64,000 nt of DNA from a virus, in IMG/VR virus record IMGVR_UViG_3300025436_000002, positions 64,001-128,000 of that record, one strand, 5' to 3'. Below, one piece after another: positions 25,409-63,017 of this stretch. Position 1 is the first letter of the stretch. Every line of letters begins with the position of its first letter. The notes under the pieces were generated by a model that worked only from the letters and a program-made list of their open reading frames with translations, did no database searches and was not told the origin of the DNA. The position numbers and the translations under genes are program-made.

Positions 25409-25648
25409 ATGAAAAATATACTAGTCACATTCTGTGAGAATGATTTTATATATTCTGTATATCTACAAGATGGGACAGGTATCCCACTTACAGACTACTG
25501 CCATAGGATACTATCACATATAGCCAGCCAAGGAGTTGAAACTATATTTAATACTCTAACTGAATTACTACAAAGATATCCTGATGCTGAGATAATAGAT
25601 CCAATAGAAGTTTCTAAAATTCTAATGACCGAAGAATTATTAAAATAG
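25409..25648 (+). CDS. KYLMxxELLK-tag family protein
   Basis: Ends EVSKILMTEELLK. Confidence 0.8.
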   Translation: MKNILVTFCENDFIYSVYLQDGTGIPLTDYCHRILSHIASQGVETIFNTLTELLQRYPDAEIIDPIEVSKILMTEELLK

Positions 25649-25711
25649 ATTGTAAAGTTTCATTTCAATAACCTTACTGAGAGTCTTGACGACTCTCTTT
25701 TTTTATGCTAT
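25622..25711 (+). repeat. 90-bp repeat copy 1 (tag end plus hairpin promoter)
   Basis: 89/90 identical to 56297-56386. Confidence 0.9.
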
Positions 25712-25740
25712 TCTATTCGTGTAAGGTTAGATAAAAGGAA
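25651..25740 (+). promoter_or_regulatory. Hairpin-embedded promoter/terminator
   Basis: GAGAGTC-TTGAC-GACTCTC-T7; TTGACG(25686)-17-TATTCT. Confidence 0.75.
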
Positions 25741-26340
25741 ATGTTTATGGAAACTAAACGAGTAAGGCTAACAGGAAGACTTCAAAGACAGGGTAGAATA
25801 AAACATCCAGACTTTAAAAAGTATGGCGTAAGAGAAATCCTAGATAATTTGACTGAAGCATGTAGTAAAGATAAAATAAACTTCGATGGAACTTTAGTAG
25901 GCTTGTCTAAATCCAAGTACAGAGTATTTGAAAAGAGTCATGTATGTGCTAAGTGTGGATTAGAAGCTCAGTACTTTATACTGGAGAAGCATGGTATGTG
26001 GATGGGTAAAGGGAATGTATATAACATATCAAATGAATATAGATTTCATCTTATGGCTGTAAGAGGAGATGGAAGTGAAGTAGAATTCACACAAGATCAC
26101 ATACTTCCTAAAACTTTAGGTGGAATTAATAATCTTATTAATTACCAAACTATGTGTATGGATTGTAATTCTAGGAAGGGTCATAAGGTTGAAGAGAGAG
26201 ATCTTAAAGTAATGAGTAATATCCTAAAGGAACTTGAAATTAAACACATACCTCATGAGGTTAGAACACCTTTTCACATTAAACTAATAAAGATAGTTAA
26301 CAAGGAAAGACGGGAGAGTTTATGTCAGTTTATGAAATAA
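25741..26340 (+). CDS. HNH endonuclease
   Basis: CAKC, DHILPKTLGG, NYQTMCMDCNSRKG. Confidence 0.85.
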   Translation: MFMETKRVRLTGRLQRQGRIKHPDFKKYGVREILDNLTEACSKDKINFDGTLVGLSKSKYRVFEKSHVCAKCGLEAQYFILEKHGMWMGKGNVYNISNEYRFHLMAVRGDGSEVEFTQDHILPKTLGGINNLINYQTMCMDCNSRKGHKVEERDLKVMSNILKELEIKHIPHEVRTPFHIKLIKIVNKERRESLCQFMK

Positions 26341-26600
26341 CAAAGTCAGCTTCTAGGGAAGGAAACGAGATAGTCTTCAGAACTCTTGATAGGCAGAAAG
26401 CTATAGACAAGATTAAAGAATTGGCGGGAGATACTAACCCTGATAAGTGGGAAGGTCAAGTGTGGAACAACGGAAACTCTATGGTAAGAAAATGGATTAA
26501 CAATAAGATAGATGAACCTCTAAACTGGGGCTATGCTTACTCAGCCATGTACGGTGGCAACATCCCTAGCTATTATCTTAAACAACACAAGTTAGATTAA
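26322..26600 (+). CDS. Hypothetical protein
   Basis: GGAG RBS; overlaps the HNH gene end. Confidence 0.55.
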   Translation: MSVYEITKSASREGNEIVFRTLDRQKAIDKIKELAGDTNPDKWEGQVWNNGNSMVRKWINNKIDEPLNWGYAYSAMYGGNIPSYYLKQHKLD

Positions 26601-26699
26601 TGTAACAAAGTATTAACCTTACATCATTGAGAGCCTTGACGGCTCTCTTTTTTTATGCTATTATGTATAAGTGAAGTTATTTAATTAAAGGAGACTGTC
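26601..26699 (+). promoter_or_regulatory. Hairpin-embedded promoter/terminator
   Basis: GAGAGCC-TTGAC-GGCTCTC-T7; TTGACG(26636)-17-TATTAT. Confidence 0.75.
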
Positions 26700-26975
26700 A
26701 TGTCACAGCAAGCACCTACTGAGAATGTAACTAACCCAAGATACCAAGCTTTCCTAGACTATCATTACGGAAATCATATGTTACATCACTACTCTCAGTT
26801 TATTAACAATATGGTTATTAATTTCCAAAAAGAACACCCTGAGAAAAATATAGGAAAACATGTTGTAGATCACGATGCTTTCACTAGCTATATAATTGAA
26901 AGTGTAGCCAAAGCAAATTCTCTACAGGAGATGGGATATGGGGATCATGCTCAATTTATCTGGGGAGACATGTAA
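26700..26975 (+). CDS. Hypothetical protein
   Basis: First gene after promoter. Confidence 0.6.
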   Translation: MSQQAPTENVTNPRYQAFLDYHYGNHMLHHYSQFINNMVINFQKEHPEKNIGKHVVDHDAFTSYIIESVAKANSLQEMGYGDHAQFIWGDM

Positions 26976-27244
26976 TGAATGAACTATTCGGAGATGATGT
27001 TCAAGGACTCTTCGTAGCTCACAGTCTGGAGGATTCCCTTGACTTCAAATTCTTCATATACGAGGGATTAAACTATCAAACTAGAATTAAATATAGAAAC
27101 TATGATTGGTCGAGAACGAGGATATGGGCAAACTCAACTCCAGAACAAGCATTGGAAACATTTAAGAATGATCCAAAGTATGTAGTATATGAAGATATAG
27201 CTGGATTTAAGAAGTATCTGATGACAAGAGAACTTATTAAGTAG
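26975..27244 (+). CDS. KYLMxxELLK-tag family protein
   Basis: Ends FKKYLMTRELIK. Confidence 0.8.
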   Translation: MNELFGDDVQGLFVAHSLEDSLDFKFFIYEGLNYQTRIKYRNYDWSRTRIWANSTPEQALETFKNDPKYVVYEDIAGFKKYLMTRELIK

Positions 27245-27961: not shown

Positions 27962-28282
27962 GTGACAAAGATTACGCTTGAGAATACTAATACACTACGT
28001 ATGAGAACTATTCCAGACGGGTTATCTCTCTTTAATCCTAGGGACGGACAACCTGAAATAGCTTATATGTTCTATGTGCTAGGTAGTAAACTTTGTGTAA
28101 TATCTTCAACTCACTATAATAACTTTAGAGATCCTACCTGTTGGATTGTTAGTTCTAGTAAAGAAAAATTAGAAACCCTAGGGAAGCTTACTGAAGCGTA
28201 TGCAACTTATAGGAACTTTTCTTTTACAACAGATACTAAAGAGATCAAAAGGCATATGATGATGAGGGAATTACTACAATGA
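27962..28282 (+). CDS. KYLMxxELLK-tag family protein
   Basis: Ends EIKRHMMMRELLQ. Confidence 0.75.
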   Translation: MTKITLENTNTLRMRTIPDGLSLFNPRDGQPEIAYMFYVLGSKLCVISSTHYNNFRDPTCWIVSSSKEKLETLGKLTEAYATYRNFSFTTDTKEIKRHMMMRELLQ

Positions 28283-28599
28283 GTAAAGTAACTCTAGGGG
28301 AGGTAATGATACTTGAAGGGATGTCTCCGATAGCTATATCTATATTCAGATATGGATATGATCGAATGATAGAGGAAATATCTTACAGGTTCTATATTAT
28401 GCAAGATAAACTTTTCTATATAGCTGATAAAGAAAACAGCCAGTTATTAGAAAAACCTCTGTGGGGAAGAGACACTAGATTTTCGGGAGATCTTTTAGAT
28501 AAGTTAGCTGAGGAATACTCAGGTGTGGGTAACTATTACCTCATAAGAGGGTATAAGGAAGTTAATAAATACATGATGGCAAGGGAGCTATTAAAATGA
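28279..28599 (+). CDS. KYLMxxELLK-tag family protein
   Basis: Ends EVNKYMMARELLK. Confidence 0.8.
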   Translation: MSKVTLGEVMILEGMSPIAISIFRYGYDRMIEEISYRFYIMQDKLFYIADKENSQLLEKPLWGRDTRFSGDLLDKLAEEYSGVGNYYLIRGYKEVNKYMMARELLK

Positions 28600-28844
28600 A
28601 TACTAAGTACTTTGCAGAGTATTATGATTTCTATAGGAGATACACTAAGAAGTTCTTTTTAAACAAAGACACTAATACTATTTTGTATGATATGGAAAGA
28701 GGAATGCATTCATCCCTCATAAATCTTTTTTATTTTGGAGGATTCAAGTGTCTATTGGAGGAGTTTGGAGGCAACCCTGATTTCTATATATACGATAATA
28801 AGCTATTCGATAAGTATTTAATGATAGAAGAATTAGAAAAATAA
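28596..28844 (+). CDS. KYLMxxELLK-tag family protein
   Basis: Ends LFDKYLMIEELEK. Confidence 0.8.
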   Translation: MNTKYFAEYYDFYRRYTKKFFLNKDTNTILYDMERGMHSSLINLFYFGGFKCLLEEFGGNPDFYIYDNKLFDKYLMIEELEK

Positions 28845-28861: not shown

Positions 28862-29047
28862 GTGGCTAAACCTATAACTACAACCTCAGAAAAGATTCAA
28901 GCCTATAGACTCAAGTATGGATGTGGAATCATGGATGCAAAGGAAGCAGTACTCTCACAAGAAAGAGAAGATAGGATACTCAGCTTAGAAGCTAGAATAG
29001 AAAAACTCGAGAGATTAGTTAGGAAGTTAGTTAGGGATAGTAAATGA
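28862..29047 (+). CDS. Small protein with EF-Ts-N/L7-L12-like helical motif and coiled coil
   Basis: IQAYRLKYGCGIMDAKEAV. Confidence 0.45.
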   Translation: MAKPITTTSEKIQAYRLKYGCGIMDAKEAVLSQEREDRILSLEARIEKLERLVRKLVRDSK

Positions 29048-29283
29048 AAAAGATAGCTATATACCAAGAACCTAACGGAATATTCTCAAGAGTATATTGG
29101 ATGACGGATACTCTATCAATTTTAATGGAGTACTCTTCTGTTACGAGCTCACTCCCTATTACAGAGTACTTAGGAGATATTTGTGATCTATTACGCCAAT
29201 ATGTACAGACGAGACAAGATTTTAAAATACTGGATCAAAAACTATTTGATAAATATCTTATGGTGGAAGAGTTACTAAAGTAA
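29044..29283 (+). CDS. KYLMxxELLK-tag family protein
   Basis: Ends LFDKYLMVEELLK. Confidence 0.8.
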   Translation: MKKIAIYQEPNGIFSRVYWMTDTLSILMEYSSVTSSLPITEYLGDICDLLRQYVQTRQDFKILDQKLFDKYLMVEELLK

Positions 29284-29726: not shown

Positions 29727-29987
29727 ATGAGGAGACCTTCAATATTAACTCTAGTAGCTATAGCTAAGTCTGTTAATAATGAATCAAACTTAGCCTACTA
29801 CCGTGATGAACTGGGTGAGATATATTGGAGTTCTATATTTTCAAAGACCTTAGGAATGCAGGACATATGCTTAGATCGTAATTGGTCTATAAAAAAGTTA
29901 GCATGGATGGTAGCCAACCCTAAATACTTCATAACAGACTCTAAGGAACTGGACAAGTATTTAATGACTAGGGAGCTACTGAAATGA
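29727..29987 (+). CDS. KYLMxxELLK-tag family protein
   Basis: Ends ELDKYLMTRELLK. Confidence 0.8.
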   Translation: MRRPSILTLVAIAKSVNNESNLAYYRDELGEIYWSSIFSKTLGMQDICLDRNWSIKKLAWMVANPKYFITDSKELDKYLMTRELLK

Positions 29988-30337
29988 AGATTTACAAAGC
30001 TTCTGATGATAGTAGTATATTCTATATTAATCTAAATAAACCTAAGAATAGTAAAGACCTACGAGATTTTAAACTTACGTACACGGCTTTAAGTTTTAAG
30101 ACTATTCTAAATATTAACTTCTCCATAAGGGATACTATAGTAGTACTCTATGATACTGAAATACTTTCATTTTTTATTACAAATATTATGAGGAAACGTC
30201 AAAGTATTAACAGTAATCTAATTCTTTCGAGTATTGAATGTTACTATCAACTAAATTTGGAAGACTACGCTAAAAAGCTTCCTATAAAAGATAAAGACTT
30301 TAAGAAAGCTTTAATGATAAAGGAGTTGTTGAGATGA
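29984..30337 (+). CDS. KYLMxxELLK-tag family protein
   Basis: Ends DFKKALMIKELLR. Confidence 0.75.
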   Translation: MKIYKASDDSSIFYINLNKPKNSKDLRDFKLTYTALSFKTILNINFSIRDTIVVLYDTEILSFFITNIMRKRQSINSNLILSSIECYYQLNLEDYAKKLPIKDKDFKKALMIKELLR

Positions 30338-30639
30338 ATACATGGGTTCGGACACCAGTTATCCCTTGTGAAATAGTAGCTATCCAACGTCTAGAAGAAC
30401 TTAGTGGACGGTGGTTATGTGCTTATTGGATTAGAAGAATTCCTATAGAAGGTGTAGTCTTTCATGATCCTAAAGCTATCCAAGCACATTCTTATATAAA
30501 CTATGACTGGAACAATATCTGTGAAGATATGAGAAGTTCTTTAGAAGAACTAATTAAGATAAACCCAGTTGCTATCGAATTGATAATAGATAGAAAAGAG
30601 ATCAATAAGATATTAATGATCATGGAGTTACGGAGATGA
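30334..30639 (+). CDS. KYLMxxELLK-tag family protein
   Basis: Ends EINKILMIMELRR. Confidence 0.8.
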   Translation: MNTWVRTPVIPCEIVAIQRLEELSGRWLCAYWIRRIPIEGVVFHDPKAIQAHSYINYDWNNICEDMRSSLEELIKINPVAIELIIDRKEINKILMIMELRR

Positions 30640-31004
30640 AACCTATACTAACAACAACAATGAATATAGATTTAAGTAAGCACGGCTCTCCTTGTGAACT
30701 AGTAGCTATTGAAGAACTAGCATACCCCCGCTTCTGTGGAGGGATGGGGGAGATAGAGATTACAACTCTCTACTGGATGAGAAAGATAGCTCCAGAAGGA
30801 ATTATAGATAATGATTTTAATAGAGAGTACTATTCAAAACTGATATGTTACTCTTCATTAGATTATATGTGGAACATAGCTGAAAGACAGTATGAACGCA
30901 AATCACTTAAAGAATTACTAGATTCAACCTCATCCCTTAATAATCTAATAACAGATCCTAAAGAAATTAATAAGATATTAATGACAAAGGAGTTACTAAA
31001 GTAA
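30636..31004 (+). CDS. KYLMxxELLK-tag family protein (close paralog of 31291)
   Basis: Ends TDPKEINKILMTKELLK. Confidence 0.8.
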   Translation: MKPILTTTMNIDLSKHGSPCELVAIEELAYPRFCGGMGEIEITTLYWMRKIAPEGIIDNDFNREYYSKLICYSSLDYMWNIAERQYERKSLKELLDSTSSLNNLITDPKEINKILMTKELLK

Positions 31005-31294
31005 TGGAAGACAATTTAAAATTAGTAGCTATAGTTAAATATAGGCAGGGAGGTGCTCTAGTCTATGCTTTCTATGAGAGGCTGGGTTCTATGTGGGGAA
31101 GTCGTAAGACAGTATTAAAGACTATACCTTATTATGACTTTAAAATACATCGTAGTAGTATAGGAATATTCTACAATGGGTACACTAATATAAAATGTAT
31201 AGTAAGAGACTATGAAGATGATTACAGTAAAGAAGTTATAACAGACGAGAAAGAGATCAATAGGTACTTGATGACTAGGGAGTTATTAAAATGA
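31004..31294 (+). CDS. KYLMxxELLK-tag family protein
   Basis: Ends TDEKEINRYLMTRELLK. Confidence 0.8.
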   Translation: MEDNLKLVAIVKYRQGGALVYAFYERLGSMWGSRKTVLKTIPYYDFKIHRSSIGIFYNGYTNIKCIVRDYEDDYSKEVITDEKEINRYLMTRELLK

Positions 31295-31668
31295 AATATC
31301 TCGGAATTAAATACGCAACTATCAACATAGAGACTAGCCATCCAGAAATTGAACTGGTAGCTATCGAGGTATTACCTTATAGTCTACTAGCATGGAGCGG
31401 TAGTTTTGGTGATGAGGATGTTAGCCTTCTGTATTGGATGAGACGGGTACTTCCATCTGGAGTTATAATGAACGAGATCAATCTGAAATACTATCGAGAA
31501 GTAATATGCTACTACACTCCATCAGAACATGTATGGGATAGTGGACGATGTCGTGCTGAATGTACTTCACTCCAGATACTCCTAGATTGTATTCCAGAGA
31601 GTCATAAACTTATTACAGATCCTAAAGAAATAAATAAGATACTAATGACACAGGAGTTATTAAAATAA
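31291..31668 (+). CDS. KYLMxxELLK-tag family protein
   Basis: Ends TDPKEINKILMTQELLK. Confidence 0.8.
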   Translation: MKYLGIKYATINIETSHPEIELVAIEVLPYSLLAWSGSFGDEDVSLLYWMRRVLPSGVIMNEINLKYYREVICYYTPSEHVWDSGRCRAECTSLQILLDCIPESHKLITDPKEINKILMTQELLK

Positions 31669-31928
31669 TGAGAAAATTCATACTCTTAATTATAGATGAT
31701 AACATGACTTTTATCAAACTAACAAAGGAAACAAGTAGGAGAGAAGGAAACTACGGAACATACTATGTTACTACAGACGGGTACGGTACTGGAACAAGAC
31801 TTCCTTCATTCTTTAACCATAAAGACAAAGGAGATATGAGAAGACTACTCTCAGGAAATACTAACAGGAGATTAGCTACCCCCGAGGAGACAGTAAAGTA
31901 TTTAATGCTTGAGGAGTTATTGAAATGA
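31668..31928 (+). CDS. KYLMxxELLK-tag family protein
   Basis: Ends ETVKYLMLEELLK. Confidence 0.8.
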   Translation: MRKFILLIIDDNMTFIKLTKETSRREGNYGTYYVTTDGYGTGTRLPSFFNHKDKGDMRRLLSGNTNRRLATPEETVKYLMLEELLK

Positions 31929-32239
31929 GAACAAGAGTAGCTGAAAGAGTAGCCTTGGTTATATGCCCAGGAGAGTCTAGGTTTATAGAAGGTGTTTACA
32001 TGGACGAAGAGGGAATCCTTTTTGGATTATACTGTAGGACTTGTAAAGAGTTATACTATTATCAAGACGTAAATCCTTATGATAATATTGATAGAATACA
32101 TTACAGATCTGCGGAAGAACTTAGAGATAGACTATCCTCAGATAGTAGCAGGTTTTGTAATTATAATAGTAGCTTCAAAGTAATAACAGATGAGAAAGAG
32201 ATCAATAAGTATCTTATGGTGAGGGAGTTATTAAAATGA
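31925..32239 (+). CDS. KYLMxxELLK-tag family protein
   Basis: Ends TDEKEINKYLMVRELLK. Confidence 0.8.
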   Translation: MRTRVAERVALVICPGESRFIEGVYMDEEGILFGLYCRTCKELYYYQDVNPYDNIDRIHYRSAEELRDRLSSDSSRFCNYNSSFKVITDEKEINKYLMVRELLK

Positions 32240-33086: not shown

Positions 33087-33413
33087 ATGAAAGAAGGTAC
33101 TGGTAAAATGTTTAACGATGCTAAAGTAATGAAACAAGAGTATATAGCAATATCCATGAGCTCCGAGATGGATAGGCATACTTATACTTACTTTATATCT
33201 TCGGGTGTCCTCTTCTTTCAAGCTATAAAAGAAGAGGGTAGGCTAGGGAAGATCCGTAAACACTACCTAAGTAATAAGTACCCCTCTAGGGAAGACTGTC
33301 TTAAAGAACTAATTAAATTTAGTAAGGATGCATTAAATGGATATGAATTAGTAGCTGTAAGTTCACAACAAGAGATTGATAGATATATGATGACAAGGGA
33401 GCTATTAAAATGA
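33087..33413 (+). CDS. KYLMxxELLK-tag family protein
   Basis: EYIAIS...; ends EIDRYMMTRELLK. Confidence 0.8.
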   Translation: MKEGTGKMFNDAKVMKQEYIAISMSSEMDRHTYTYFISSGVLFFQAIKEEGRLGKIRKHYLSNKYPSREDCLKELIKFSKDALNGYELVAVSSQQEIDRYMMTRELLK

Positions 33414-33682
33414 ACGTAGTTAAAAATTTAGTAGCTGTGGCAATTCCTCCGTTACAGAGACTTGATACAAAGTTTTTCCACCTTGATGAGTATGGGATGT
33501 ATGTAGAGGAGTGTGTTTATCTTGGAGAAGATTACCTTGACCGTTCTACCCTACATACTCTTAGGGAAGTAGATCATGATCTTAGAAGGAGATTAGCTAT
33601 CTTTGAATGTACAAGTTTTAGTATCGTACAGGAGGAGAAAGAACTTAGGAAGTATTCTATGATTATGGAGTTGATGAGATGA
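33410..33682 (+). CDS. KYLMxxELLK-tag family protein
   Basis: Ends ELRKYSMIMELMR. Confidence 0.75.
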   Translation: MNVVKNLVAVAIPPLQRLDTKFFHLDEYGMYVEECVYLGEDYLDRSTLHTLREVDHDLRRRLAIFECTSFSIVQEEKELRKYSMIMELMR

Positions 33683-35371: not shown

Positions 35372-35606
35372 ATGAGTAAAAAAATATGTAGCGTTAACCC
35401 TAGACAAGGGCAAAATAAAGTACAAATACTTTATGGTAGGCAATGAATTACACATAGAGTTTTATAATGGAACTACTAACTACGCATCTGAGCAGAGTCT
35501 TGAGGAGAATTTTAAGTATGATAAAAGTACTTTAACTGACCCTTTTTTAGTGGAAGGAGTTCAAGAAGCTAATAAGTTCTTAATGGCGGGGGAGTTATTG
35601 AAATGA
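35372..35606 (+). pseudogene. Tag-family gene frameshifted in an A7 run
   Basis: Removing one A at 35378-35384 gives MSKKYVALTLDKGKIKYKYF...EANKFLMAGELLK. Confidence 0.75.
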
Positions 35607-35917
35607 ATAGGAAATATGTAGCATTGTCAACCTTCATAGACAGTAGGGATATAATAGAATATGTTCTGTATAGTACTCATGTCTTTAAAGGAGATGGTAA
35701 GACTTATCTCGAATGTATCACAGAAAGCATGATTGAACATAAAGATTGTCCTTATTATGCTAAAGATGTATGGGATTCCAATCTTCATACAGAAGGTATT
35801 AATATTAGAAAGTCTTTGAGTCAACACCTTAGCTATGACAGATCTCAAGGGTATAAAACAACTAGGGATGTAAAGGTTATAAACAATTTCTTAATGATGA
35901 AGGAGTTATTAAAATAA
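35603..35917 (+). CDS. KYLMxxELLK-tag family protein
   Basis: MNRKYVALS...INNFLMMKELLK. Confidence 0.8.
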   Translation: MNRKYVALSTFIDSRDIIEYVLYSTHVFKGDGKTYLECITESMIEHKDCPYYAKDVWDSNLHTEGINIRKSLSQHLSYDRSQGYKTTRDVKVINNFLMMKELLK

Positions 35918-36284: not shown

Positions 36285-36430
36285 ATGATTAGACCCAAGT
36301 TAACTTATATAACATCTGTCCTCAATCTTACTACCATGTTTCAACTTTACGTATGGATAAGTGTAGAACAGTATCAACCAAGACTAGTATTATCAGTAAA
36401 TATTTAATGACTTTGGAGTTATTAAAATGA
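36285..36430 (+). pseudogene. Degenerate tag-family remnant
   Basis: ATG frame stops early; another frame ends IISKYLMTLELLK*. Confidence 0.6.
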
Positions 36431-36711
36431 AACCAAAACTATATCCTACACAAAAGATAGAAAATGATGAAGGTATAGAATACATAGCTCTCTCGTACTC
36501 AGGTTCAAGAATATTATACGGGTACTCCTATAATAAGGATGGAAAGCTTGTAGCTCATGATATTAGTAGTAACGGAGTTCACACCTTTATGCCCAGCGGA
36601 AAACTAGATACCGAGCTACAACGAGATAGAATCTTATTTACAAATGTTAAAACTACTAAGTCTAAGAAGAAGATAAAAAAGTTACTAATGATTCGGGAGC
36701 TACTAAGATGA
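36427..36711 (+). CDS. KYLMxxELLK-tag family protein
   Basis: EYIALS; ends IKKLLMIRELLR. Confidence 0.8.
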   Translation: MKPKLYPTQKIENDEGIEYIALSYSGSRILYGYSYNKDGKLVAHDISSNGVHTFMPSGKLDTELQRDRILFTNVKTTKSKKKIKKLLMIRELLR

Positions 36712-36965
36712 TAATAATAAAAGATGAGGAGATAATATTAGCTGTAATAAAGCCCATGGACAAGACAGAAGAGCCTTATATATTCTTATACTTCTGGGAT
36801 GGTGGCAGACTTTGTTATTGGGATAACAAAGGGAGGTGGAATCGAAGTTGCCACTCTGAGCTTGATGAGTTGTATGAAGACCTTTCATCATTGAAGATCT
36901 ATGAAATAACAACGGATGAATCTGTAATAAAGAAATATATCATGGCTATGGAGTTACTAAAATGA
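36708..36965 (+). CDS. KYLMxxELLK-tag family protein (paralog of 38790)
   Basis: Ends IKKYIMAMELLK. Confidence 0.8.
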   Translation: MIIIKDEEIILAVIKPMDKTEEPYIFLYFWDGGRLCYWDNKGRWNRSCHSELDELYEDLSSLKIYEITTDESVIKKYIMAMELLK

Positions 36966-37252
36966 ATCCTAATGATCCTATACTAGATTTTAGTCATATA
37001 GAGCTTACTTTGATCTGCTGGGTAGCTATAAAGAATCAAAGTATGGAGCCTCTATATTTCTATGTGGATAAGGACACGGATTTATACTTCTATAACCCAT
37101 GGTATTACACTAAGTTAAGTTTAAATATTTCCCTAGACTTAGCTTATCCGCATGAGTTAAAAGATTATCTGGATGATGGTAACTATATATGGAAATCCGA
37201 TCAGTTAGGGATTGCCAAAAAGTATAGTGTACTACAGGAGTTAATGAAATGA
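36962..37252 (+). CDS. KYLMxxELLK-tag family protein
   Basis: Ends AKKYSVLQELMK. Confidence 0.75.
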   Translation: MNPNDPILDFSHIELTLICWVAIKNQSMEPLYFYVDKDTDLYFYNPWYYTKLSLNISLDLAYPHELKDYLDDGNYIWKSDQLGIAKKYSVLQELMK

Positions 37253-37483
37253 CTAGAGAATACATAGCTCTATCCACAAGAGAAGAAGACGGAAAGTATT
37301 GGTTATACTGGATGAAAGGATCTAAATTAATGTTCTCGGATAGGTGTGACGGTGGAGCACAGTTCAGCCAACTACTAGATTTAAAACAGAATCTTAATAG
37401 TGATAAGGTTAGTGCTATATACTTCGACTAAAGATCCAAAAAAGATAGCAAAGTTTTTAATGATAAGAGAGTTATTAAAATGA
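37249..37483 (+). pseudogene. Frameshifted tag-family gene
   Basis: MTREYIALS... stops at 37431; shifted frame continues TKDPKKIAKFLMIRELLK*. Confidence 0.75.
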
Positions 37484-37725
37484 ATAAGGAATACGTAGTC
37501 ATAACTTTGAAAAAGAATGGGGATGTAAAATATAGATATTATTATATATCTGGAGAATTGTATTATGATTCCTATGGTAACTATGGTAACTATAACGTTC
37601 TCGGATCTCTTGCTCCGATAAATGATCTTGCAGCAAATCTCGATGATGATACATGCTGGGGTCATGAGACCTTGGTGGGTAATGAGGCTATAAAGTATCT
37701 AATGGTACAAGAGTTAAAAAAATAA
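37480..37725 (+). CDS. KYLMxxELLK-tag family protein
   Basis: MNKEYVVI...EAIKYLMVQELKK. Confidence 0.8.
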   Translation: MNKEYVVITLKKNGDVKYRYYYISGELYYDSYGNYGNYNVLGSLAPINDLAANLDDDTCWGHETLVGNEAIKYLMVQELKK

Positions 37726-38438: not shown

Positions 38439-38612
38439 ATGAGTTTTGAAATAAGTATTGAACCTAGGTGTGGAGTCTATGGAGTCGCTCATGTATTTGA
38501 TAAGACTCGTAACTTAGAGAGAGCTATCGAAAGTTGTGTCCTTAACAATAGAAATGAACTTACAACTATAAAGAAGAAGTACAACTGTAAAGATCATAAG
38601 TGGCAGGCATGA
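38439..38612 (+). CDS. Small hypothetical protein (57 aa, not in ORF track)
   Basis: MSFEISIEPRC...KKKYNCKDHKWQA*; RBS after promoter. Confidence 0.55.
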   Translation: MSFEISIEPRCGVYGVAHVFDKTRNLERAIESCVLNNRNELTTIKKKYNCKDHKWQA

Positions 38613-38692
38613 ATAAAGAGTATATAGCACTAACCTTAGACAAGGGCAAAGTAAGGTACAAATTCTTAATGTCTCAGGAGTTATTAAAATGA
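38609..38692 (+). CDS. 27-aa 'empty' tag-family mini-gene
   Basis: MNKEYIALTLDKGKVRYKFLMSQELLK*, ATGA-coupled on both sides. Confidence 0.65.
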   Translation: MNKEYIALTLDKGKVRYKFLMSQELLK

Positions 38693-38789
38693 TATCATAC
38701 GTTAATCCTTATACACCTATTGATGAAGATACTGAATACAAAGGTATATCCTATTCTGGAACAAAGATACCTAAGAGTAGGTATTCTGT

Positions 38790-48291: not shown

Positions 48292-48396
48292 TTAAGAAGC
48301 ACCTATCCATGCAGACTGGGCAAGCTCCTAAGGATTCAAAGTTTACTTGGATAATTTATATAGCTCAACCTTTCATTCATGGAGAATATTTAATGG

Positions 48397-49414: not shown

Positions 49415-49713
49415 AATTAAGGGTAACTAAGGAAGGAGTGTCTCTGGATTCTCTTACAACTGTACTAGCTATTATTATATCTAACTACAACGGTAATATA
49501 GTATATAACTTCTATTATAAGATAACAAATTTTAATACTATACGTTTAAGTCCTGATCTGGCATTCGATGTCCAGTACGTTCTCAGATCCGATTTTAAGA
49601 GTGTAGAGGATATTGTAGCTAAATTTAAGACCTCTCCTGTAAAGATTGTTACGGGAGCCGACTTAGTCGGAGAGATTAATAAATATTTAATGATACATGA
49701 GTTGATGAAATGA
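49411..49713 (+). CDS. KYLMxxELLK-tag family protein
   Basis: Ends EINKYLMIHELMK. Confidence 0.8.
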   Translation: MKLRVTKEGVSLDSLTTVLAIIISNYNGNIVYNFYYKITNFNTIRLSPDLAFDVQYVLRSDFKSVEDIVAKFKTSPVKIVTGADLVGEINKYLMIHELMK

Positions 49714-49958
49714 GTAGAGAATACGTAGCTATATCTATTAAGAATTACTCCGACAGGGATAGGTGCACTATAAAATATTACTGGGAGAGTTATAGCCTCT
49801 GCTACATAATCTCTGATGAATTTGGAACTGTTGAGGAGTATGCCGATACAAGTATATTAATGGAGGAATTAAATAAGGATAAGGAGTCTGGGTTTGAAGT
49901 TATATCTGGTAGGCTTGAGGTTGCAAAATACCTAATGATGCAGGAATTATTGAATTAA
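49710..49958 (+). CDS. KYLMxxELLK-tag family protein
   Basis: MSREYVAIS...EVAKYLMMQELLN. Confidence 0.8.
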   Translation: MSREYVAISIKNYSDRDRCTIKYYWESYSLCYIISDEFGTVEEYADTSILMEELNKDKESGFEVISGRLEVAKYLMMQELLN

Positions 49959-53056: not shown

Positions 53057-53305
53057 GTGTACATAATAGGTAAGGCTACAGTACTGAAGATAGCGATATG
53101 TAAAGATACAAAGGTAGCTTACATGATTAGAGGGTGGGGATGTCTATGTCAGTCTAATATAGATTATGATTGTGTAGAAACTACTACTGGGAGTGTAAGG
53201 CGTATTACTGAAAAAACTGCCTTCAATATAGACCTTGACAACTACGATGTTCTTGAAGGGACTGGTATGAATAAATATTTAATGGCATTGGAGTTAAGTA
53301 AGTGA
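53057..53305 (+). CDS. KYLMxxELLK-tag family protein
   Basis: Ends GMNKYLMALELSK. Confidence 0.78.
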   Translation: MYIIGKATVLKIAICKDTKVAYMIRGWGCLCQSNIDYDCVETTTGSVRRITEKTAFNIDLDNYDVLEGTGMNKYLMALELSK

Positions 53306-53490
53306 GAATAGAAATTGGAAATAGGGTTAGACTTCTCTATCAATCTGGGTATTATGAAGTCCTAGGATACACAGTTGAAGGTTGTATTAGATGTAAGAAA
53401 ATAGCTAACGACGAGGGTCTTTGGGTAGCTCCAGAAATTGAGATAGTTAATCCTAGTCATCTAGGTAATGTGTTAGACATGTTAGGGTAG
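53302..53490 (+). CDS. Small SH3/KOW-like hypothetical protein
   Basis: IEIGNRVRL..YEVLG..IRCK. Confidence 0.4.
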   Translation: MRIEIGNRVRLLYQSGYYEVLGYTVEGCIRCKKIANDEGLWVAPEIEIVNPSHLGNVLDMLG

Positions 53491-53507
53491 GGGGAGGTGA
53501 AAGTCTC

Positions 53508-53649
53508 ATGAGTTATGTAGAAGATGTCTTAGAGTTAGTAAGATTTACGGAGTTAGTTAACGATAATTCCATGGGGGGGTGGGTTGGATATTGAAATACT
53601 CTTGAAGGAATATAGGAAATATCTTATGATGAAGGAACTATTAAAATGA
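53508..53649 (+). pseudogene. Tag-family gene frameshifted in a G7 run
   Basis: Removing one G at 53573-53579 gives MSYVED...EYRKYLMMKELLK. Confidence 0.6.
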
Positions 53650-53882
53650 AGATGGTAGCTGTAATGACAGATGTTCAGAATCCTGAGATAATTTGTTATT
53701 ATTTTGAAAAAGAAGGATACAAGTATCTATTACTTGAGGATAATGGGGAAAACTGGGTGCAGTACACGGGGCATACTCTAGAAACATTACTAGACACGGG
53801 AAGGTTGTCTAATAATTTTAATGTCACAACTGATTCCTTAGAAATTAACAAACATTCCATGCTGAGAGAGCTGTCGAAGTAG
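53646..53882 (+). CDS. KYLMxxELLK-tag family protein
   Basis: Ends EINKHSMLRELSK. Confidence 0.75.
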   Translation: MKMVAVMTDVQNPEIICYYFEKEGYKYLLLEDNGENWVQYTGHTLETLLDTGRLSNNFNVTTDSLEINKHSMLRELSK

Positions 53883-55468: not shown

Positions 55469-55822
55469 ATGGCTAAAAAACTAGAAATAAGTATAGGGGA
55501 TATAATTACTATTGCTAGAGCTACTGGATATTTTAGATACGTAGCTAGTTTACCTAGAATAGGTTATCACGATGTAAAAGTATTTGTCAAAGAACTTGGA
55601 TCTGGAGGGAAAATTGACTCTTCTGATTATAAAGTGGAGAGGATCGGCTTTGTGGGGATAGCTAAAGTATCCAAAGAGTCTCTTGATGAGATGTATAATA
55701 AAGAATTAAAGAGTATTGAAGGACGTAAGATTAGACTCGAAGCTAAGAAAAAAATATTATCAAAATTGACTAAACCCTCTGAGATAGCTAAATTCTTAAT
55801 GACAAGGGAACTATTGAAATGA
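55469..55822 (+). CDS. KYLMxxELLK-tag family protein (atypical body)
   Basis: Ends SEIAKFLMTRELLK. Confidence 0.78.
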   Translation: MAKKLEISIGDIITIARATGYFRYVASLPRIGYHDVKVFVKELGSGGKIDSSDYKVERIGFVGIAKVSKESLDEMYNKELKSIEGRKIRLEAKKKILSKLTKPSEIAKFLMTRELLK

Positions 55823-56085
55823 AACACGAAGATTATCTTACGGATGATAAAGGACTTATATACTTAGACTCTCTCAAAGCTGAGGGTCTAACCTTTAAAT
55901 ATGTTCCTAAATGGACATCTAAATATAATAGTTATGTGGTATATGACTATGAACCTTTCTGTGCTGATGGATTCTATGTTTCAGTCGATCTTGAAGGGGA
56001 TGAATCCATGGTTAATTATGTAGTATATCTGTGTGATAAAAGAAAAGAAGGTATCGAGAATATCAAGAGGTGCTTTAATGAGTAA
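55819..56085 (+). CDS. Hypothetical protein
   Basis: ATGA-coupled. Confidence 0.55.
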   Translation: MKHEDYLTDDKGLIYLDSLKAEGLTFKYVPKWTSKYNSYVVYDYEPFCADGFYVSVDLEGDESMVNYVVYLCDKRKEGIENIKRCFNE

Positions 56086-56323
56086 AGAGTACGTAATTAT
56101 CGCCAAATTTTTTGATGACGGGCCAACACTGGAGTATTTTAGATATCCAGATAATTCTAATGATATTTACTATATGTTTTCAAATTGTACTAATCTAGAA
56201 AGTAGACATCCTTATAGTGTTGATCGTATAGTATGTGATCTTAGTCAAAGGAATACTGTAATGTTGTTAACAAATAAAAAAGATATAGATAAATACCTAA
56301 TGACCAAAGAATTATTAAAATAG
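56078..56323 (+). CDS. KYLMxxELLK-tag family protein
   Basis: MSKEYVII...DIDKYLMTKELLK. Confidence 0.8.
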   Translation: MSKEYVIIAKFFDDGPTLEYFRYPDNSNDIYYMFSNCTNLESRHPYSVDRIVCDLSQRNTVMLLTNKKDIDKYLMTKELLK

Positions 56324-56756: not shown

Positions 56757-57011
56757 GTGAGGGAATACATACTTTTTGAAAGGTATTGGAACTACGAACA
56801 TAAATACTACTACGTCGAAGATGAAGTTACCTATTGGGTATATTCTGGAGGAGGTCCTCCTGCTATTTCAGCATGGCAAGGCGAGGCGGATGTTAAAAGG
56901 TTAGTCCGTATTACTAAACTTGATAGTCTTGAAAAGGTACAACCTTATATATTAACTATTGGACATCGTGAAGTGGCTAAGTTATTAATGGAGATAGAAT
57001 TGCTAAAATGA
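56757..57011 (+). CDS. KYLMxxELLK-tag family protein
   Basis: Ends EVAKLLMEIELLK. Confidence 0.78.
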   Translation: MREYILFERYWNYEHKYYYVEDEVTYWVYSGGGPPAISAWQGEADVKRLVRITKLDSLEKVQPYILTIGHREVAKLLMEIELLK

Positions 57012-57241
57012 AAAAAGTCTTAGCTCTTATACTTGATATGGAGTCTAATGAGATAATTTGTAGGATAGCTTGTGATACCTATGGAAATACGTTCACTTCG
57101 TTAGGCGGTGTTAATTGGAGATATGCTCAAAAACCTATGTCCTACTACATAAGTTCTGTTAACTTAGGAGAGGGTTATTACGCTGTAACATCTCCAGAGG
57201 GTGTTGATGAGTTACTTATGGTTGAGGAGCTATTAAAATGA
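57008..57241 (+). CDS. KYLMxxELLK-tag family protein
   Basis: Ends GVDELLMVEELLK. Confidence 0.75.
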   Translation: MKKVLALILDMESNEIICRIACDTYGNTFTSLGGVNWRYAQKPMSYYISSVNLGEGYYAVTSPEGVDELLMVEELLK

Positions 57242-57507
57242 AAAGAAGGTTTATTTATTTAGGGCATTCCAATACCTACTACCCAGGTGGATCAGGTAAT
57301 ACATGTTACAATAGATATTATTACTTTAGAGACGAAGAGTATACAGTATATCTCTCGGATATTTGTTATCCTACTAAACATAGTCTATCCCGAATATCAT
57401 CAGATCGTCTGAAATGTAGGCTACACGGGGCAGGAGGACATGTCATGTGTAAACGGAGTAAAAAGAGTATATCTAAATTTTTAATGACTAAGGAGTTATC
57501 TAAATGA
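57238..57507 (+). CDS. KYLMxxELLK-tag family protein
   Basis: Ends ISKFLMTKELSK. Confidence 0.78.
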   Translation: MKRRFIYLGHSNTYYPGGSGNTCYNRYYYFRDEEYTVYLSDICYPTKHSLSRISSDRLKCRLHGAGGHVMCKRSKKSISKFLMTKELSK

Positions 57508-57800
57508 CTAAAAAGTATATAGGACTTATTCTAGGGAGGTACAGTAGGTGCGGAGATTTTAATTTCTATTCACCTTCCATGAAGATATACTATGTTGAAA
57601 ATAGAATTTGTTATCAAAGTGTTGTATTTGACGAGATTCCCGTCATGCCAAACCTTTATAATAAAACATTTACTATGGATACAAGTTATGCTAGAGTAGC
57701 ATTTGACTTAATTATAGCTAAAAGACATAGTTGTCTAACAGTCATTACAAACCATGCTGAGATTATAAAATATTTAATGACGGAGGAACTATTAAAGTGA
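57504..57800 (+). CDS. KYLMxxELLK-tag family protein
   Basis: Ends EIIKYLMTEELLK. Confidence 0.8.
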   Translation: MTKKYIGLILGRYSRCGDFNFYSPSMKIYYVENRICYQSVVFDEIPVMPNLYNKTFTMDTSYARVAFDLIIAKRHSCLTVITNHAEIIKYLMTEELLK

Positions 57801-57841
57801 AGATTAATAAATTCTTAATGTTAAAGGAGTTATCTAAATGA
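57797..57841 (+). CDS. 14-aa tag-only mini-ORF
   Basis: GTG-KINKFLMLKELSK*, coupled by GTGA/ATGA overlaps. Confidence 0.55.
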   Translation: MKINKFLMLKELSK

Positions 57842-58026: not shown

Positions 58027-58289
58027 GTTTATCTAAAGAATTCTTCATACAACTTAAAATTAACTTCGACGAAGTCTTTGGAGGTACTAGTCTCCTAGAC
58101 ATGGAACATATGATACATAGTGCGGGTACTATGGGTTTTGACAGGGCTCTTCTAAAGACTTGTAAAGAATTCAATGTGATGTCAACTTACCAAGAGTTTG
58201 AAGGTATGGATTGGTATGAGTATGATGTATCATGTTCTCTTCTAGTCGATGAAGTGGCTAATGCTTTGGAGAGAATACATGAAAGCTAA
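58023..58289 (+). CDS. Hypothetical protein
   Basis: ATGA-coupled. Confidence 0.55.
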   Translation: MSLSKEFFIQLKINFDEVFGGTSLLDMEHMIHSAGTMGFDRALLKTCKEFNVMSTYQEFEGMDWYEYDVSCSLLVDEVANALERIHES

Positions 58290-58566
58290 AAGAGGAAATA
58301 GTGTTTATTTTAATGTTCAAGATATTAACTTTATTCTTATGGAGGAGGGACGTATACTATATGAGTATGTATGGAAAAACAATAATCTCTATGTTAGACA
58401 TAGGGATATGGAAGTTCACCTCATAGGTAACAAGTTGGGTTCTTCTTTAAGAGAGGTGGTAGCTTACTTTAAAGGAAAACATGCGGAGATATATCCGAAT
58501 CTCTTATTTTCAGATGATAAGATTCATATAGATAAATTGTTGGTGATAGAAGAGTTATTAAAATAG
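58279..58566 (+). CDS. KYLMxxELLK-tag family protein
   Basis: Ends HIDKLLVIEELLK. Confidence 0.75.
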   Translation: MKAKRGNSVYFNVQDINFILMEEGRILYEYVWKNNNLYVRHRDMEVHLIGNKLGSSLREVVAYFKGKHAEIYPNLLFSDDKIHIDKLLVIEELLK

Positions 58567-60227: not shown

Positions 60228-60527
60228 ATGGAAAAAGATTATTTAGTTTTAATACTTATAGGGAATAACTATTTTTGTTACTATTATGACAAATCTAACT
60301 TTGAAGATAAGATATATCAAGACAGCAATTTTACTAGAATTTCTAATAGAAGTCAAGATTTCTTCATGAGGACTGATGATAGGATTTTAGCTCTGTCGGT
60401 TATATTCACCCACCATCAATTAGATATGATAGGTAAACGAGACTTCCCTAAAAAAGAAAAAGTTACCATTGTAACAGACCGTAATGAATTCGATAAGTAT
60501 TTAATGATATTTGAGTTACTTAAATAA
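60228..60527 (+). CDS. KYLMxxELLK-tag family protein
   Basis: Ends EFDKYLMIFELLK. Confidence 0.8.
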   Translation: MEKDYLVLILIGNNYFCYYYDKSNFEDKIYQDSNFTRISNRSQDFFMRTDDRILALSVIFTHHQLDMIGKRDFPKKEKVTIVTDRNEFDKYLMIFELLK

Positions 60528-60591
60528 AACTTAACATTACTCTTGACAAACCACTCAGGTTCTGGTATTCTTATTAAATAATGAGGTATCT

Positions 60592-60837
60592 ATGAAAGAA
60601 TATATAGCTGAATATTCAACAAATAGGCATATAAGAAGATACTATGTTCGAGAAGGGGAGTTATTCTACAATTTATATAGTCCTTTCTCAGACGGTAGCG
60701 AAGAGAAAAAAGACGTATACAATAACAGTGTTCATGCTCTATCCATTGGGATGTATTTTGTAAACGCATCTAAACTAGTAATACTAAATCAAGGTCTTGT
60801 TGATAAGTATCTTATGCTGGAGGAACTAATGCGGTGA
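60592..60837 (+). CDS. KYLMxxELLK-tag family protein
   Basis: MKEYIA...LVDKYLMLEELMR; promoter TTGACA-17-TATTCT at 60543. Confidence 0.8.
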   Translation: MKEYIAEYSTNRHIRRYYVREGELFYNLYSPFSDGSEEKKDVYNNSVHALSIGMYFVNASKLVILNQGLVDKYLMLEELMR

Positions 60838-61160
60838 GAGAGTACCCTGAAAAGAAAGAGACTGGCTTTGTCGAACAACACGTTTTTATGTGTCTCCATA
60901 ACCCAAATAGACTCCCTGAATATTATCATAAACCAGTAGAGTCCAAGTTTTATATATCTGAAGGACAGAGTTATTACTATTTATTTCAAAATCAATCTTT
61001 GAAGTTTTATACCTCCAATTCAGGCCTCTTAATAAAAGTTCACCACGGCAACCCCCAGAAATCCTTAAACCATTTTAAATATAATAGACTAAACTACGAT
61101 ATAATTACTAATAAAAAAGAAATAAGAAAACACTTAATGATGAAGGAGTTATTGAAATGA
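60834..61160 (+). CDS. KYLMxxELLK-tag family protein
   Basis: Ends EIRKHLMMKELLK. Confidence 0.8.
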   Translation: MREYPEKKETGFVEQHVFMCLHNPNRLPEYYHKPVESKFYISEGQSYYYLFQNQSLKFYTSNSGLLIKVHHGNPQKSLNHFKYNRLNYDIITNKKEIRKHLMMKELLK

Positions 61161-61879
61161 AAAGATGGACTAAAGAAGAAACAGGATTGCTTAAACAAAA
61201 CATGGATGCTACACTGTTAAATTTAAAACAACTACTACCTGACAGAACCGAAGACATGATTATTGAGAAAATTAAAGTGCTCTATCGTCAAGTTGCCTTT
61301 GATAGATGGAACGAAGACGAGTTAAACATCATTAGAGCCAATCCTAATAGATCAGTATTTGAACTACTCAAGCTATTGCCTAATAGAACTTTTAGTGCTA
61401 TTGTGTCAAAGAGGGCTGAGATACGTGGAACTATGGGAGTATCCCGAGATAACAGAGTTGCATGGAGTACTGAAGATATATCTCAATTAAAATATCTCAA
61501 ATCAGAAGGTTACACGAATTACGAGATAGCCTTAACTTTAGGTAGACCTTTAAATTCAGTCATTGGAAGATTATCTACTGAGAGTCTGATGACTCGAAAA
61601 TCAAGGGGACATGCTTGGACACCTAAAGAACTTGAACTTGTACGGGAGAAGGTGGCTGGGAAAGTATCTATCGAAGCTATAGGTAGAGAGTTAAATTTAC
61701 CAACTAATAAAGTCTTCCAGAAAGCAATACACCTAGGATTTAGATCAGCTGAGATAGTAACAGCTAGTAGTCATACTCGTAAAGAGGCTTCAGTCCTTAG
61801 AGAACAGATAAAAGAACTAACCCGTAGAATAAAGATACAGGATAAGACTATAATTAAATTATCTAAAAAACAGGTTTAG
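61157..61879 (+). CDS. Myb/SANT-like tandem HTH-repeat DNA-binding protein
   Basis: Four repeats: RWTKEE, RWNEDE, AWSTED, AWTPKE...L.R. Confidence 0.7.
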   Translation: MKRWTKEETGLLKQNMDATLLNLKQLLPDRTEDMIIEKIKVLYRQVAFDRWNEDELNIIRANPNRSVFELLKLLPNRTFSAIVSKRAEIRGTMGVSRDNRVAWSTEDISQLKYLKSEGYTNYEIALTLGRPLNSVIGRLSTESLMTRKSRGHAWTPKELELVREKVAGKVSIEAIGRELNLPTNKVFQKAIHLGFRSAEIVTASSHTRKEASVLREQIKELTRRIKIQDKTIIKLSKKQV

Positions 61880-61945
61880 GTATTGACATTTAAGATAACA
61901 TCCTTTATACCGTGAGTATGTAGTAGACGATTAAGGAGATAAACC

Positions 61946-62326
61946 ATGAAATGTGAATTTTGTCATATACCTTTAGCTAACGAACCAACCCTTCAAGAGT
62001 ATTTCTACCAAAAGAAGAGAGAGTTCGTTCCAACTCTTCCGACTCTATTTGATGAGTGCCAAATAGAGATAGAACAAAAGTGTATTTGTCCTAAGTGTTT
62101 TATGGCAGGTAGAATCCAACCTGAAGATATATTTATTCAGACTTTTGGATTTGCCCAAAGTGACGTTACCTATGAGTCTATAAAAGAAAAAGTACTTACA
62201 GAAGTTAAGGATAGAATTAAATCAATGGGAGAAACTCAAAAACTTTTAAAGAGAGAGATTGACATATATAAAAAATATCTAATTCCTAAGAAAGAGAAGA
62301 AGACTAAGAAGGTAAAAGGTGTTTAA
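61946..62326 (+). CDS. Zinc-binding hypothetical protein
   Basis: CEFC...CPKC; promoter at 61883. Confidence 0.55.
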   Translation: MKCEFCHIPLANEPTLQEYFYQKKREFVPTLPTLFDECQIEIEQKCICPKCFMAGRIQPEDIFIQTFGFAQSDVTYESIKEKVLTEVKDRIKSMGETQKLLKREIDIYKKYLIPKKEKKTKKVKGV

Positions 62327-62558
62327 TGTGGAAGATTTCACAGCTAGGCAGGTATACGAAATAGCTTATAAACTACGAAGGCTTCCAGAGTGTACTGAGA
62401 AAATGCTTGATAGAAAAATAAAACCTTCAAAGCTTAACTCATGTAAGTGTGTAGTTTGTGATGTTATATTTATGTATACATCTGATCGAAAAAAGACTTG
62501 CTCAGTTAAACGTGGGGACGTATATACTGAAAGATTAGAGTCTGGGTTTTATGGATAG
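62319..62558 (+). CDS. Hypothetical protein with Cys motif
   Basis: CVVC...TCS. Confidence 0.45.
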   Translation: MFNVEDFTARQVYEIAYKLRRLPECTEKMLDRKIKPSKLNSCKCVVCDVIFMYTSDRKKTCSVKRGDVYTERLESGFYG

Positions 62559-62784
62559 AGAGTACGTTGCTCTATCCGTAGGAAAGGAATATGGAACTAT
62601 ATCTTTGAAGTTCTTCTTTAAGGATGGAAGGCTTTATCATGAGACTAGGGCAGGCTCTACTCAGATGAGTCATCTTAGAACTTTAAGAGGTTTGCGTAAC
62701 GCATATAAAGGTGCATTGTATGTAGAAATAGTGACTGGCAAAGAAGTTGCTAAGTACTTGATGTTAGAGGAACTTAAGAAATGA
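62551..62784 (+). CDS. KYLMxxELLK-tag family protein
   Basis: MDREYVALS...EVAKYLMLEELKK. Confidence 0.8.
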   Translation: MDREYVALSVGKEYGTISLKFFFKDGRLYHETRAGSTQMSHLRTLRGLRNAYKGALYVEIVTGKEVAKYLMLEELKK

Positions 62785-63017
62785 TAAAAGAGTATGTAGC
62801 ACTTTCCGTAGACAAAACTTGTAATTTTATCAATCTAAAATATTTTTTTAAGGACGGAGTTCTCTATTGCGAAACATATAAAAAGTACAGCATGATGATT
62901 AGTCAACATAAATCTTTGGAAGAACTTATTGAGGGGTTTACACACTCTAAATCAAATAAACTCATAGTGGGTAGGGAAATGGGTAAGTATCTTATGATAC
63001 TAGAGTTAATGAAATAA
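62781..63017 (+). CDS. KYLMxxELLK-tag family protein (paralog of 62551)
   Basis: MIKEYVALS...EMGKYLMILELMK. Confidence 0.8.
   Translation: MIKEYVALSVDKTCNFINLKYFFKDGVLYCETYKKYSMMISQHKSLEELIEGFTHSKSNKLIVGREMGKYLMILELMK

Follow-up and report, generated by a model that had tools for sequence, protein, structure and literature searches.

A lineage-specific family of small phage proteins that end in one conserved C-terminal tag

Large eukaryotic viruses contain multigene families, among them the multigene families (MGF) of African swine fever virus (ASFV) and the poxvirus ankyrin proteins with a C-terminal PRANC/F-box, an element with proven docking to a host ligase in poxviruses. In the T4 family of phages, many small proteins end in one short conserved peptide, an unstructured sliding-clamp-binding tail that is carried on unrelated bodies. 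The DNA analyzed here, a window of 64,000 nucleotides comprising bases 64001-128000 of one 170,200-bp contig (IMG/VR virus record IMGVR_UViG_3300025436_000002; G+C content, 34.4%), contains an array of small genes between positions 25409 and 63017 whose products have variable bodies and end in the same short sequence, here called the tag. As in the ASFV MGF and poxvirus families, tandem expansion of these genes is lineage specific and is located in a variable genome region, evolution is fast, and the terminal element is conserved; however, the host domain and the fold differ, and the helix formed by the tag appears to be part of the fold. The tag is comparable to the clamp-binding tails in that many small phage proteins end in it, but it is predicted to form a 14-residue helix within a domain common to the family, and it bears no resemblance to clamp-binding motifs. 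Unrelated body folds of the kind seen in PRANC-like or clamp-tail-like libraries were not found, as a profile made from bodies only recognizes at least 34 to 42 of the 58 bodies and leaves ~16 undecided. We know of no described phage family that has been expanded to such a degree.

In T4-type phages, stem-loop/early promoter elements termed PeSL cassettes are short repeats that border small early genes in hyperplastic regions, and recombination between these repeats shuffles, adds, and deletes gene modules (PMC2839356, PMC4122927). The array is similar in that 8 of the 10 scorable homology endpoints between close relatives lie in a tag or junction, and the phage studied here also has stem-loop-plus-promoter cassettes (at 25679, 26629, 56354, and other positions). 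In contrast to the intergenic PeSL repeats, the repeat that appears to recombine here is coding: it specifies the last helix and a ribosome-binding site and is under selection as protein. The explanation considered likely on balance is a birth-and-death family of one small WGR-like domain, the last helix of which is conserved as a part of the fold, as the carrier of the ribosome-binding site and start codon of the next gene, and consequently as a crossover site. One stretch of 50 nt would then be under three constraints, as protein helix, ribosome-binding site, and recombination substrate, and the array would show a phage accessory-gene region growing by unequal crossing-over. Binding of host defenses or nucleic acids by the members, if it occurs, would make the family a natural library built on a very small scaffold whose fold is well predicted.

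Extent and distribution of the tagged family

Family members were collected by searching the C termini of stop-to-stop open reading frames (ORFs) with a permissive regular expression of the tag, followed by curation. In the window, the pattern matched 61 plus-strand and 0 minus-strand ORFs (67 versus 0 in the whole contig). Between 25409 and 63017, curation left 57 genes that are intact and 8 copies that are broken or mini, with 6 more downstream; three intact genes (30334, 40542, and 48615) had been overlooked by the regular expression. An earlier sequence-only reading of this DNA had counted 57 intact and about 8 degenerate copies, and both its count and its coordinates were correct after curation. 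All of the copies are on the plus strand and have the C-terminal end ..K-[YF]-L-M-x-x-E-L-L-K, directly followed by the stop codon. The members are ~75 to 145 aa in size, typically ~80 residues, and the ~64 intact paralogues together take up about one-tenth of the DNA and one-fifth of the genes of the phage. The degenerate copies include three that are frame-shifted (35372, 37249, and 53508), three remnants (36293, 48288, and 48847), and two mini copies (38609 and 57797), which are described in Table 1. The one-base shifts in homopolymer runs at 35372-35395 (A7) and 53570-53585 (G7) could represent real decay, phase variation, or assembly error.

The tagged family is real, lineage specific, and undescribed. 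Consistent matches to Pfam or PHROGs were absent for 10 members and subsequently for all 102 sequences of the alignment, a family profile searched against PDB sequences recovered only two designed proteins that were taken as spurious, and Foldseek comparison with the PDB gave nothing at an E value of ≤0.001. Nothing of relevance came up when the literature was searched for such a family or for phage proteins that are small and WGR-like, in keeping with the earlier statement that no described family could be recognized. Among 1.84 billion representative proteins, the family profile identified 79 at an E value of ≤0.001; 38 of these are from the phage genome under study and 41 are foreign. All have lengths of 72 to 145 aa, so that none of the 79 is a fused form, and the 19 foreign matches that were looked up are all metagenomic, with no cultured source among them. 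A degenerate form of the tag pattern found 0 loci in viral contigs and 16 loci in metagenome contigs, including the true relatives L011, L012, L014 to L016, L020, L024, and L025, and the related contigs show the same arrays of small genes with 4-nt overlaps. Five other loci (L017, L019, L021, L022, and L026) were rejected as relatives, each having one isolated tag-like ORF that looks like a chance match; L019 and L026 are of foreign G+C content, and L021 and L022 represent a non-phage-like contig. L013, L018, and L023 contained no tagged ORF at all.

Selection on the tag, dual coding, and cassette turnover

The choice of codons at each tag position, numbered backward from the end of the gene, was compared with the codon usage of the genome's long ORFs. 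Synonymous choice fits genome usage by chi-square test at Lys-14 (p 0.92), Glu-13 (p 0.34), Tyr-9 (p 0.94), and Leu-8 (p 0.44), and the mean pairwise third-position identity of codons -16 to -6 is just 0.42. Because synonymous sites in this part follow genome usage and third-position identity is low, the tag 5' of codon -5 must be kept as protein. A comparison of orthologues, of the dN/dS type that had been suggested with the sequence-only reading, points to purifying selection (pN/pS: body, 0.50; tag, 0.27), with few differences behind these values (65 in the body and 21 in the tag). Lys-10 is encoded by AAG in 30 of 50 genes, compared with 37% genome-wide (p 8e-4), which is the sole synonymous skew outside the ribosome-binding-site part.

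Genes whose end is not tied to a following gene provide a separate view of the tag. Coupling was scored by an automatic rule in which a TAATG overlap was counted as coupled, leaving 14 genes without an overlapping downstream start; the gene ending at 39319 was scored as coupled solely via a TAATG whose ATG meets a stop at once. Glu-4 is retained in all 14 uncoupled genes, encoded as GAA in 6 of them, and Leu and Lys are retained as well, from which it follows that the protein also needs these residues. The tag is likewise retained at all eight gene ends that the sequence-only reading had listed as lacking a coupled downstream gene. None of the 102 sequences deviates from Glu-Leu, and this holds even for a distant metagenomic relative (L003; 4.9 kb, 12 arrayed genes) in which the proteins end in ..M-x-E-L-[VI]-x(1-2) and have only Glu-Leu as a common core with the family. 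The tag is under purifying selection at the protein level, as had been claimed from the variety of its synonymous codons; this variation is at genome usage for positions -14 to -8.

The last five codons of the tag are dual coded, containing a GGAG Shine-Dalgarno sequence, an AT-rich spacer, and the overlapping ATGA or GTGA start of the next gene. At codon -5, G is the third base in 39 of 44 coupled genes versus 4 of 14 uncoupled genes (p 4e-5), and Glu-4 is encoded as GAG in 35 of 43 coupled genes versus 39% genome-wide (p 2e-8). Both Leu codons are biased to TTA, TTG, or CTA and the last codon is biased to AAA, so that the combined tag end, xG-GAG-TTA-YTN-AAA-TGA, equals GGAG, eight A/T-rich bases, and ATG. 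Promoter-proximal genes of the genome use AAGGAG at similar spacing. The last base of the Lys or Arg codon together with TGA forms the overlapping ATG or GTG of the next cistron. Translation of the family genes would then be coupled along each chain, with a sigma-70-type and probably early promoter at its head. The ATG of Met-7 was also considered as an internal start and was dropped, as a usable Shine-Dalgarno sequence at the right distance is absent.

Host-type promoters had been suggested from the sequence, and motifs of the sigma-70 type do head the family operons. The pattern TTGnnn-N(11-14)-TGyTAnnnT occurs 45 times on the plus strand and 5 times on the minus strand (5 to 10 in shuffles). 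There are 16 extended -10 sites between 25 and 63 kb; 14 are intergenic and head operons with family genes, and two (61187 and 61376) are inside a non-family gene (61157-61879). A cassette of ~64 to 81 nt is repeated at 25671-25734, 26621-26684, and 56346-56409, with related copies at 34379, 36219, 38343, 39311, 40057, and 52427. Each copy has a stem-loop that is rich in G+C and holds TTGAC in its loop, together with a T run, a TG-extended -10, and a conserved GTAAGGTTAATTA leader, which looks like a terminator and an early promoter in one. Several of the extended -10 sites are part of such cassettes, the loop then containing the -35 hexamer. Since extended -10 promoters of the sigma-70 type precede the coupled operons, expression of the family is probably early and plausibly driven by the host polymerase. 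A late-like motif, TTTATATTNTA, is found 34 times on the plus strand versus once on the minus strand, and in the array region it is located 5' of non-family genes only. In the form TTTATATT[ATC]TA, which is a candidate late promoter, it is present at 41376, 49969, 51778, and 59376 and at 30 further sites in the contig, mostly in the half with structural genes.

Comparison with related contigs locates many changes in the array to the tags. Homology to L014 ends exactly at 42481, the last base of gene 42173, and homology to L025 ends at 42431, the first base of the tag of the same gene. In L015 the orthologue of 29727 is joined directly to that of 31004, with three genes (29985-30981) missing and the joints in tags, and the homology of both L012 and L024 breaks within the orphan tag at 48887. 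Overall, of 10 scorable homology endpoints, 8 are located in a tag or junction; the tags account for ~9% of the region. Synonymous change in orthologue pairs is higher in the tag (pS, 0.28) than in the body (pS, 0.13), which, small as the numbers are, fits crossovers inside tags in combination with purifying selection. With ~50 nt of tag DNA repeated ~65 times, unequal homologous recombination would be possible, and recombination within tags would add, delete, or swap whole cassettes in frame, leading to birth-and-death expansion. In L012, positions 602-3022 encode an 806-aa helicase-like protein at the place where the window has an unrelated 447-aa gene (45751-47094), indicating another replacement in the same variable region.

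Predicted fold of the bodies and explanations for the tag

The bodies had been described as mostly unalignable, which is true for pairwise BLAST, where tag-less bodies have few links and 36 of 58 are singletons, and is not true for profiles or for the predicted fold. A body profile was built from the tag-less sequences of 33 foreign, non-orthologous members only and compared with composition-matched shuffles; 34 of the 58 bodies of this phage score above the 99th percentile of the shuffles and 42 above the 95th, and split-half profile tests of the bodies agree. The product of 43968-44213 was modeled by AlphaFold2 using the 102-sequence alignment (pLDDT, 93.3; pTM, 0.83), compared with a pLDDT of 63.5 when only the 58 sequences of this phage were used and the foreign members were not added; the model that the ESM Atlas itself gives for the protein is too poor to be useful (pLDDT, 0.43). 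The predicted elements are four strands of an antiparallel sheet that includes a Tyr-rich hairpin (residues 5-10, 17-24, 27-34, and 37-43), a helix (49-58), a strand (62-64), and a second helix (67-80) that is the tag. According to this model, most members consist of one compact domain, and the tag forms its last helix. Column statistics show conserved Tyr/Val/Ala/Leu in strand 1 (the N-terminal E-Y-V-A-L) and 81% Tyr followed by aromatics in strand 2, after which there is a D/G-G turn. Further conserved core columns are Leu-x-Tyr in strand 3, Leu-x-x-x-Leu in helix 1, and the G-Y strand, and helix 2 opens with a T/S-D-x-x-E capping box. Entropy is highest, and indels are found, after strand 1 and from strand 3 to helix 1. 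The mini gene 38609 looks like the product of a deletion between the strand 2 K-Y-K-F and the K-F-L-M of the tag.

By moderate structural scores, the model resembles the WGR domain, a domain found in PARP-1, PARP-2, and PARP-3 and in many bacterial and phage proteins; its small antiparallel sheet precedes a helix, after which comes a G-Y strand. The family members differ from the WGR domain by an additional conserved helix at the C terminus, by standing alone, and by their number of ~64 copies. The best solved structural match is the N-terminal domain of 2ra8_A (Z 6.7 over 70 residues; root mean square deviation [rmsd] 3.2), which aligns with model residues 5-79, tag helix included. WGR structures gave moderate scores (PARP-3, 2eoc, Z 4.6; PARP-1, 4dqy, Z 4.2, and 2cr9, Z 3.7), small inhibitor-like proteins such as IraM gave Z 5.1, and scores of Z <8 may reflect merely a common arrangement. 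Among the nearest ESM Atlas clusters, PF05406 was found in 5 of 9 (TM, 0.58 to 0.68), two of these being mostly viral. The WGR model (PF05406) did not match any of the 102 members by hmmscan at an E value of ≤1, and PF05406, when searched at an E value of ≤10 against all six frames of the genome, gave one sub-threshold match outside the array and none in it. The W-G-R motif is absent from the column statistics, which have an aromatic run and the D/G-G turn at positions 21 to 26. Because the Pfam model fails to match and this motif is missing, the predicted fold is described as WGR-like, membership in the WGR family being not demonstrated.

A number of observations weigh against a single domain that keeps its last helix for structure and translation. 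Approximately 16 of the 58 bodies are not recognized by the body profile, and some members may carry another body, although several of the unassigned members (e.g., 43549, which has an N-terminal membrane helix) show the domain pattern by eye. The tag helix has two hydrophobic stripes, I-12/Y-9/L-8/L-2 and M-7/L-3, together with conserved polar residues (Lys-10 in 84% and Glu-4 in 100%), and it is not obvious that a purely structural helix would need either. Six of six orphan tags have a perfect motif, which fits recent decay and equally fits a function of the tag alone. The orthologue statistics depend on small numbers of differences, and the 8 of 10 homology endpoints could have been drawn into tags merely by the resemblance of tags to each other.

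These points bear most directly on the model proposed in the sequence-only reading, in which the C-terminal helix docks ~60 different binding bodies to one phage or host hub. That every member is most conserved in its tag, with a near-invariant Met, an invariant Glu-Leu, and polar residues of a surface type (Lys-10 and Glu-4), would be expected of a docking element, as would its retention in uncoupled genes, the existence of mini ORFs that consist of the tag or little more (57797-57841 and 38609-38692), and the ~16 bodies without detectable relation to the rest. The model is nevertheless judged unlikely, since most bodies are the same domain, the tag is an integral helix of the compact model with a counterpart in the best structural match, and the ribosome-binding site explains part of the conservation. 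What stands of the proposal is selection on the tag as protein, its presence in genes with no coupled downstream gene, the host-type promoters, and the lack of a match to any described family; a library of unrelated modules, as stated, is not supported, most bodies being one diverged domain. A broader version of docking seems distinctly doubtful: a portable tag with three functions (hub-docking helix in the protein, ribosome-binding site and start in the RNA, crossover site in the DNA) that would yield a self-expanding cassette library of ~65 effectors, fusions to new bodies included, with no integrase. Conservation mainly at the nucleotide level, with the 3' block acting as a translational-coupling or recombination junction and the amino acids incidental, is very unlikely. 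It would account for the strong skew of the last five codons to GGAG-N8-ATGA, for breakpoints of cassettes in tags, and for bodiless orphan tags that are kept exactly where they provide the ribosome-binding site of the next gene. It is largely refuted for codons -16 to -6, which vary freely at synonymous sites with genome frequencies; furthermore, there is no motif on the other strand, every tag copy ends a plus-strand reading frame, and uncoupled genes keep the residues (often with Glu as GAA) at a tag pN/pS of 0.27.

Exposed C-terminal motifs are typical protease handles, and the array includes a gene for an HslV-family peptidase, so the tag could be a proteolysis or unfolding handle that is read by the HslV-like peptidase or by a host AAA+ protease and that times the removal of early proteins. 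This is highly improbable given that the tag has no similarity to known degrons and is predicted to be a folded helix; no HslU-like partner turned up, though none was searched for, and co-location within a 38-kb variable region is weak evidence. Least probable of all is a capsid-loading or ejection signal, for which an analogy with T4 capsid-targeting sequences is the sole support. The sequence-only reading had raised this role, and it can be given little credence because the tagged genes follow sigma-70-type motifs and the late-type motif precedes only non-family genes here. Under the favored birth-and-death explanation, the best guess for the function of the members is that they are diversified early binders for host takeover or counter-defense. 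Such binders would vary mainly in the loop between strands 1 and 2 and in the region from strand 3 to strand 4, on a constant scaffold, and the WGR-like fold, as modeled, would allow a nucleic-acid ligand.

Genome setting and features of the array

The phage is an uncultured, contractile-tailed phage, probably from freshwater lakes. Completeness of the contig is ~90% by CheckV (IMG/VR virus record), and all ORFs of at least 300 codons are on the plus strand. The contig encodes a tail sheath, a baseplate wedge protein, a portal, a head-maturation protease, and tail fibers, in addition to a DNA polymerase, a UvsX-like recombinase, ligases, an HslV-like peptidase, and many homing endonucleases. 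No close relative of the genome was found among 50,697 phage records, where the DNA polymerase and RNA ligase matched only distant relatives, and searches of the same records with the region and with one family member (megablast and tblastn) gave 0 matches. Identical or near-identical pieces are known from metagenomes only (ENA, JGI, and Logan), and several of the sample names suggest freshwater lakes. The positions of the family genes and example promoter elements are listed in Table 1.

Table 1. Family genes, degenerate copies, and example promoter elements of the array (window coordinates)
Feature	Position	Strand
Single family gene, 79 aa, uncoupled end (TAG)	25409..25648	+
Stem-loop, TTGACG in loop, T run, TG-extended -10 (repeated promoter/terminator cassette)	25679..25714	+
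Single family gene, 89 aa, uncoupled end	26975..27244	+
Three family genes (27962, 28279, 28596) with ATGA overlaps between them	27962..28844	+
Single family gene, uncoupled end (TAA)	29044..29283	+
One coupled run of eight family genes	29727..32239	+
Two family genes	33087..33682	+
+1-shifted member (A7 run at 5' end, 35372-35606), then intact member 35603-35917	35372..35917	+
Tag remnant 36293-36430; members 36427, 36708, 36962; frameshifted copy 37249-37483 (37249/37385); member 37480	36293..37725	+
27-aa in-frame mini gene 38609-38692 (strands 1-2 joined to tag); members 38790, 39017	38609..39319	+
Four family genes (40123, 40542, 40811, 41077)	40123..41364	+
Two family genes	41865..42481	+
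Six family genes, including that of the modeled protein, 43968-44213 (P0001)	42832..44512	+
Example sigma-70-type extended -10 promoter-like site	44526..44554	+
Eight family genes, N-terminal remnant 48288-48434, and tag remnant 48847-48903	47741..49958	+
Member 53057; copy 53508-53649 broken in G7 run (53508/53557); member 53646	53057..53882	+
Members 55469 and 56078, with one non-family gene between them	55469..56323	+
Four family genes, then 14-aa tag-only ORF 57797-57841, coupled at both ends	56757..57841	+
Single family gene, uncoupled end	58279..58566	+
Members 60228, 60592, 60834	60228..61160	+
Two family genes 5' of RNA ligase gene	62551..63017	+

Several other features were observed in the window. 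Nine tRNA-like genes are clustered at 23159-24094, one of which (23277-23352) was called by ARAGORN as a suppressor with the anticodon UUA, a call that may be dubious; TAA is the commonest stop among long ORFs (55 of 112), indicating no genome-wide recoding despite this call. The HslV-family peptidase gene lies at 37798-38346, amid the tagged genes (phrog_1040, E value of 1e-22). A 56-nt element that contains CGTCCCTAGGGC is present in two copies with 88% identity (33691-33746 and 37729-37784), each just 5' of a non-family gene, namely, 33762 and the HslV-like gene. A 579-aa tail-fiber-like protein with a late-type motif upstream contains a tandem 21-nt repeat (7 aa, D-G-L-S-T-T-V) at 50246-50422. 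A pair of paralogous genes encoding ~160 aa each, at 44588-45064 and 58577-59065, is located such that each gene is directly 3' of a family operon.

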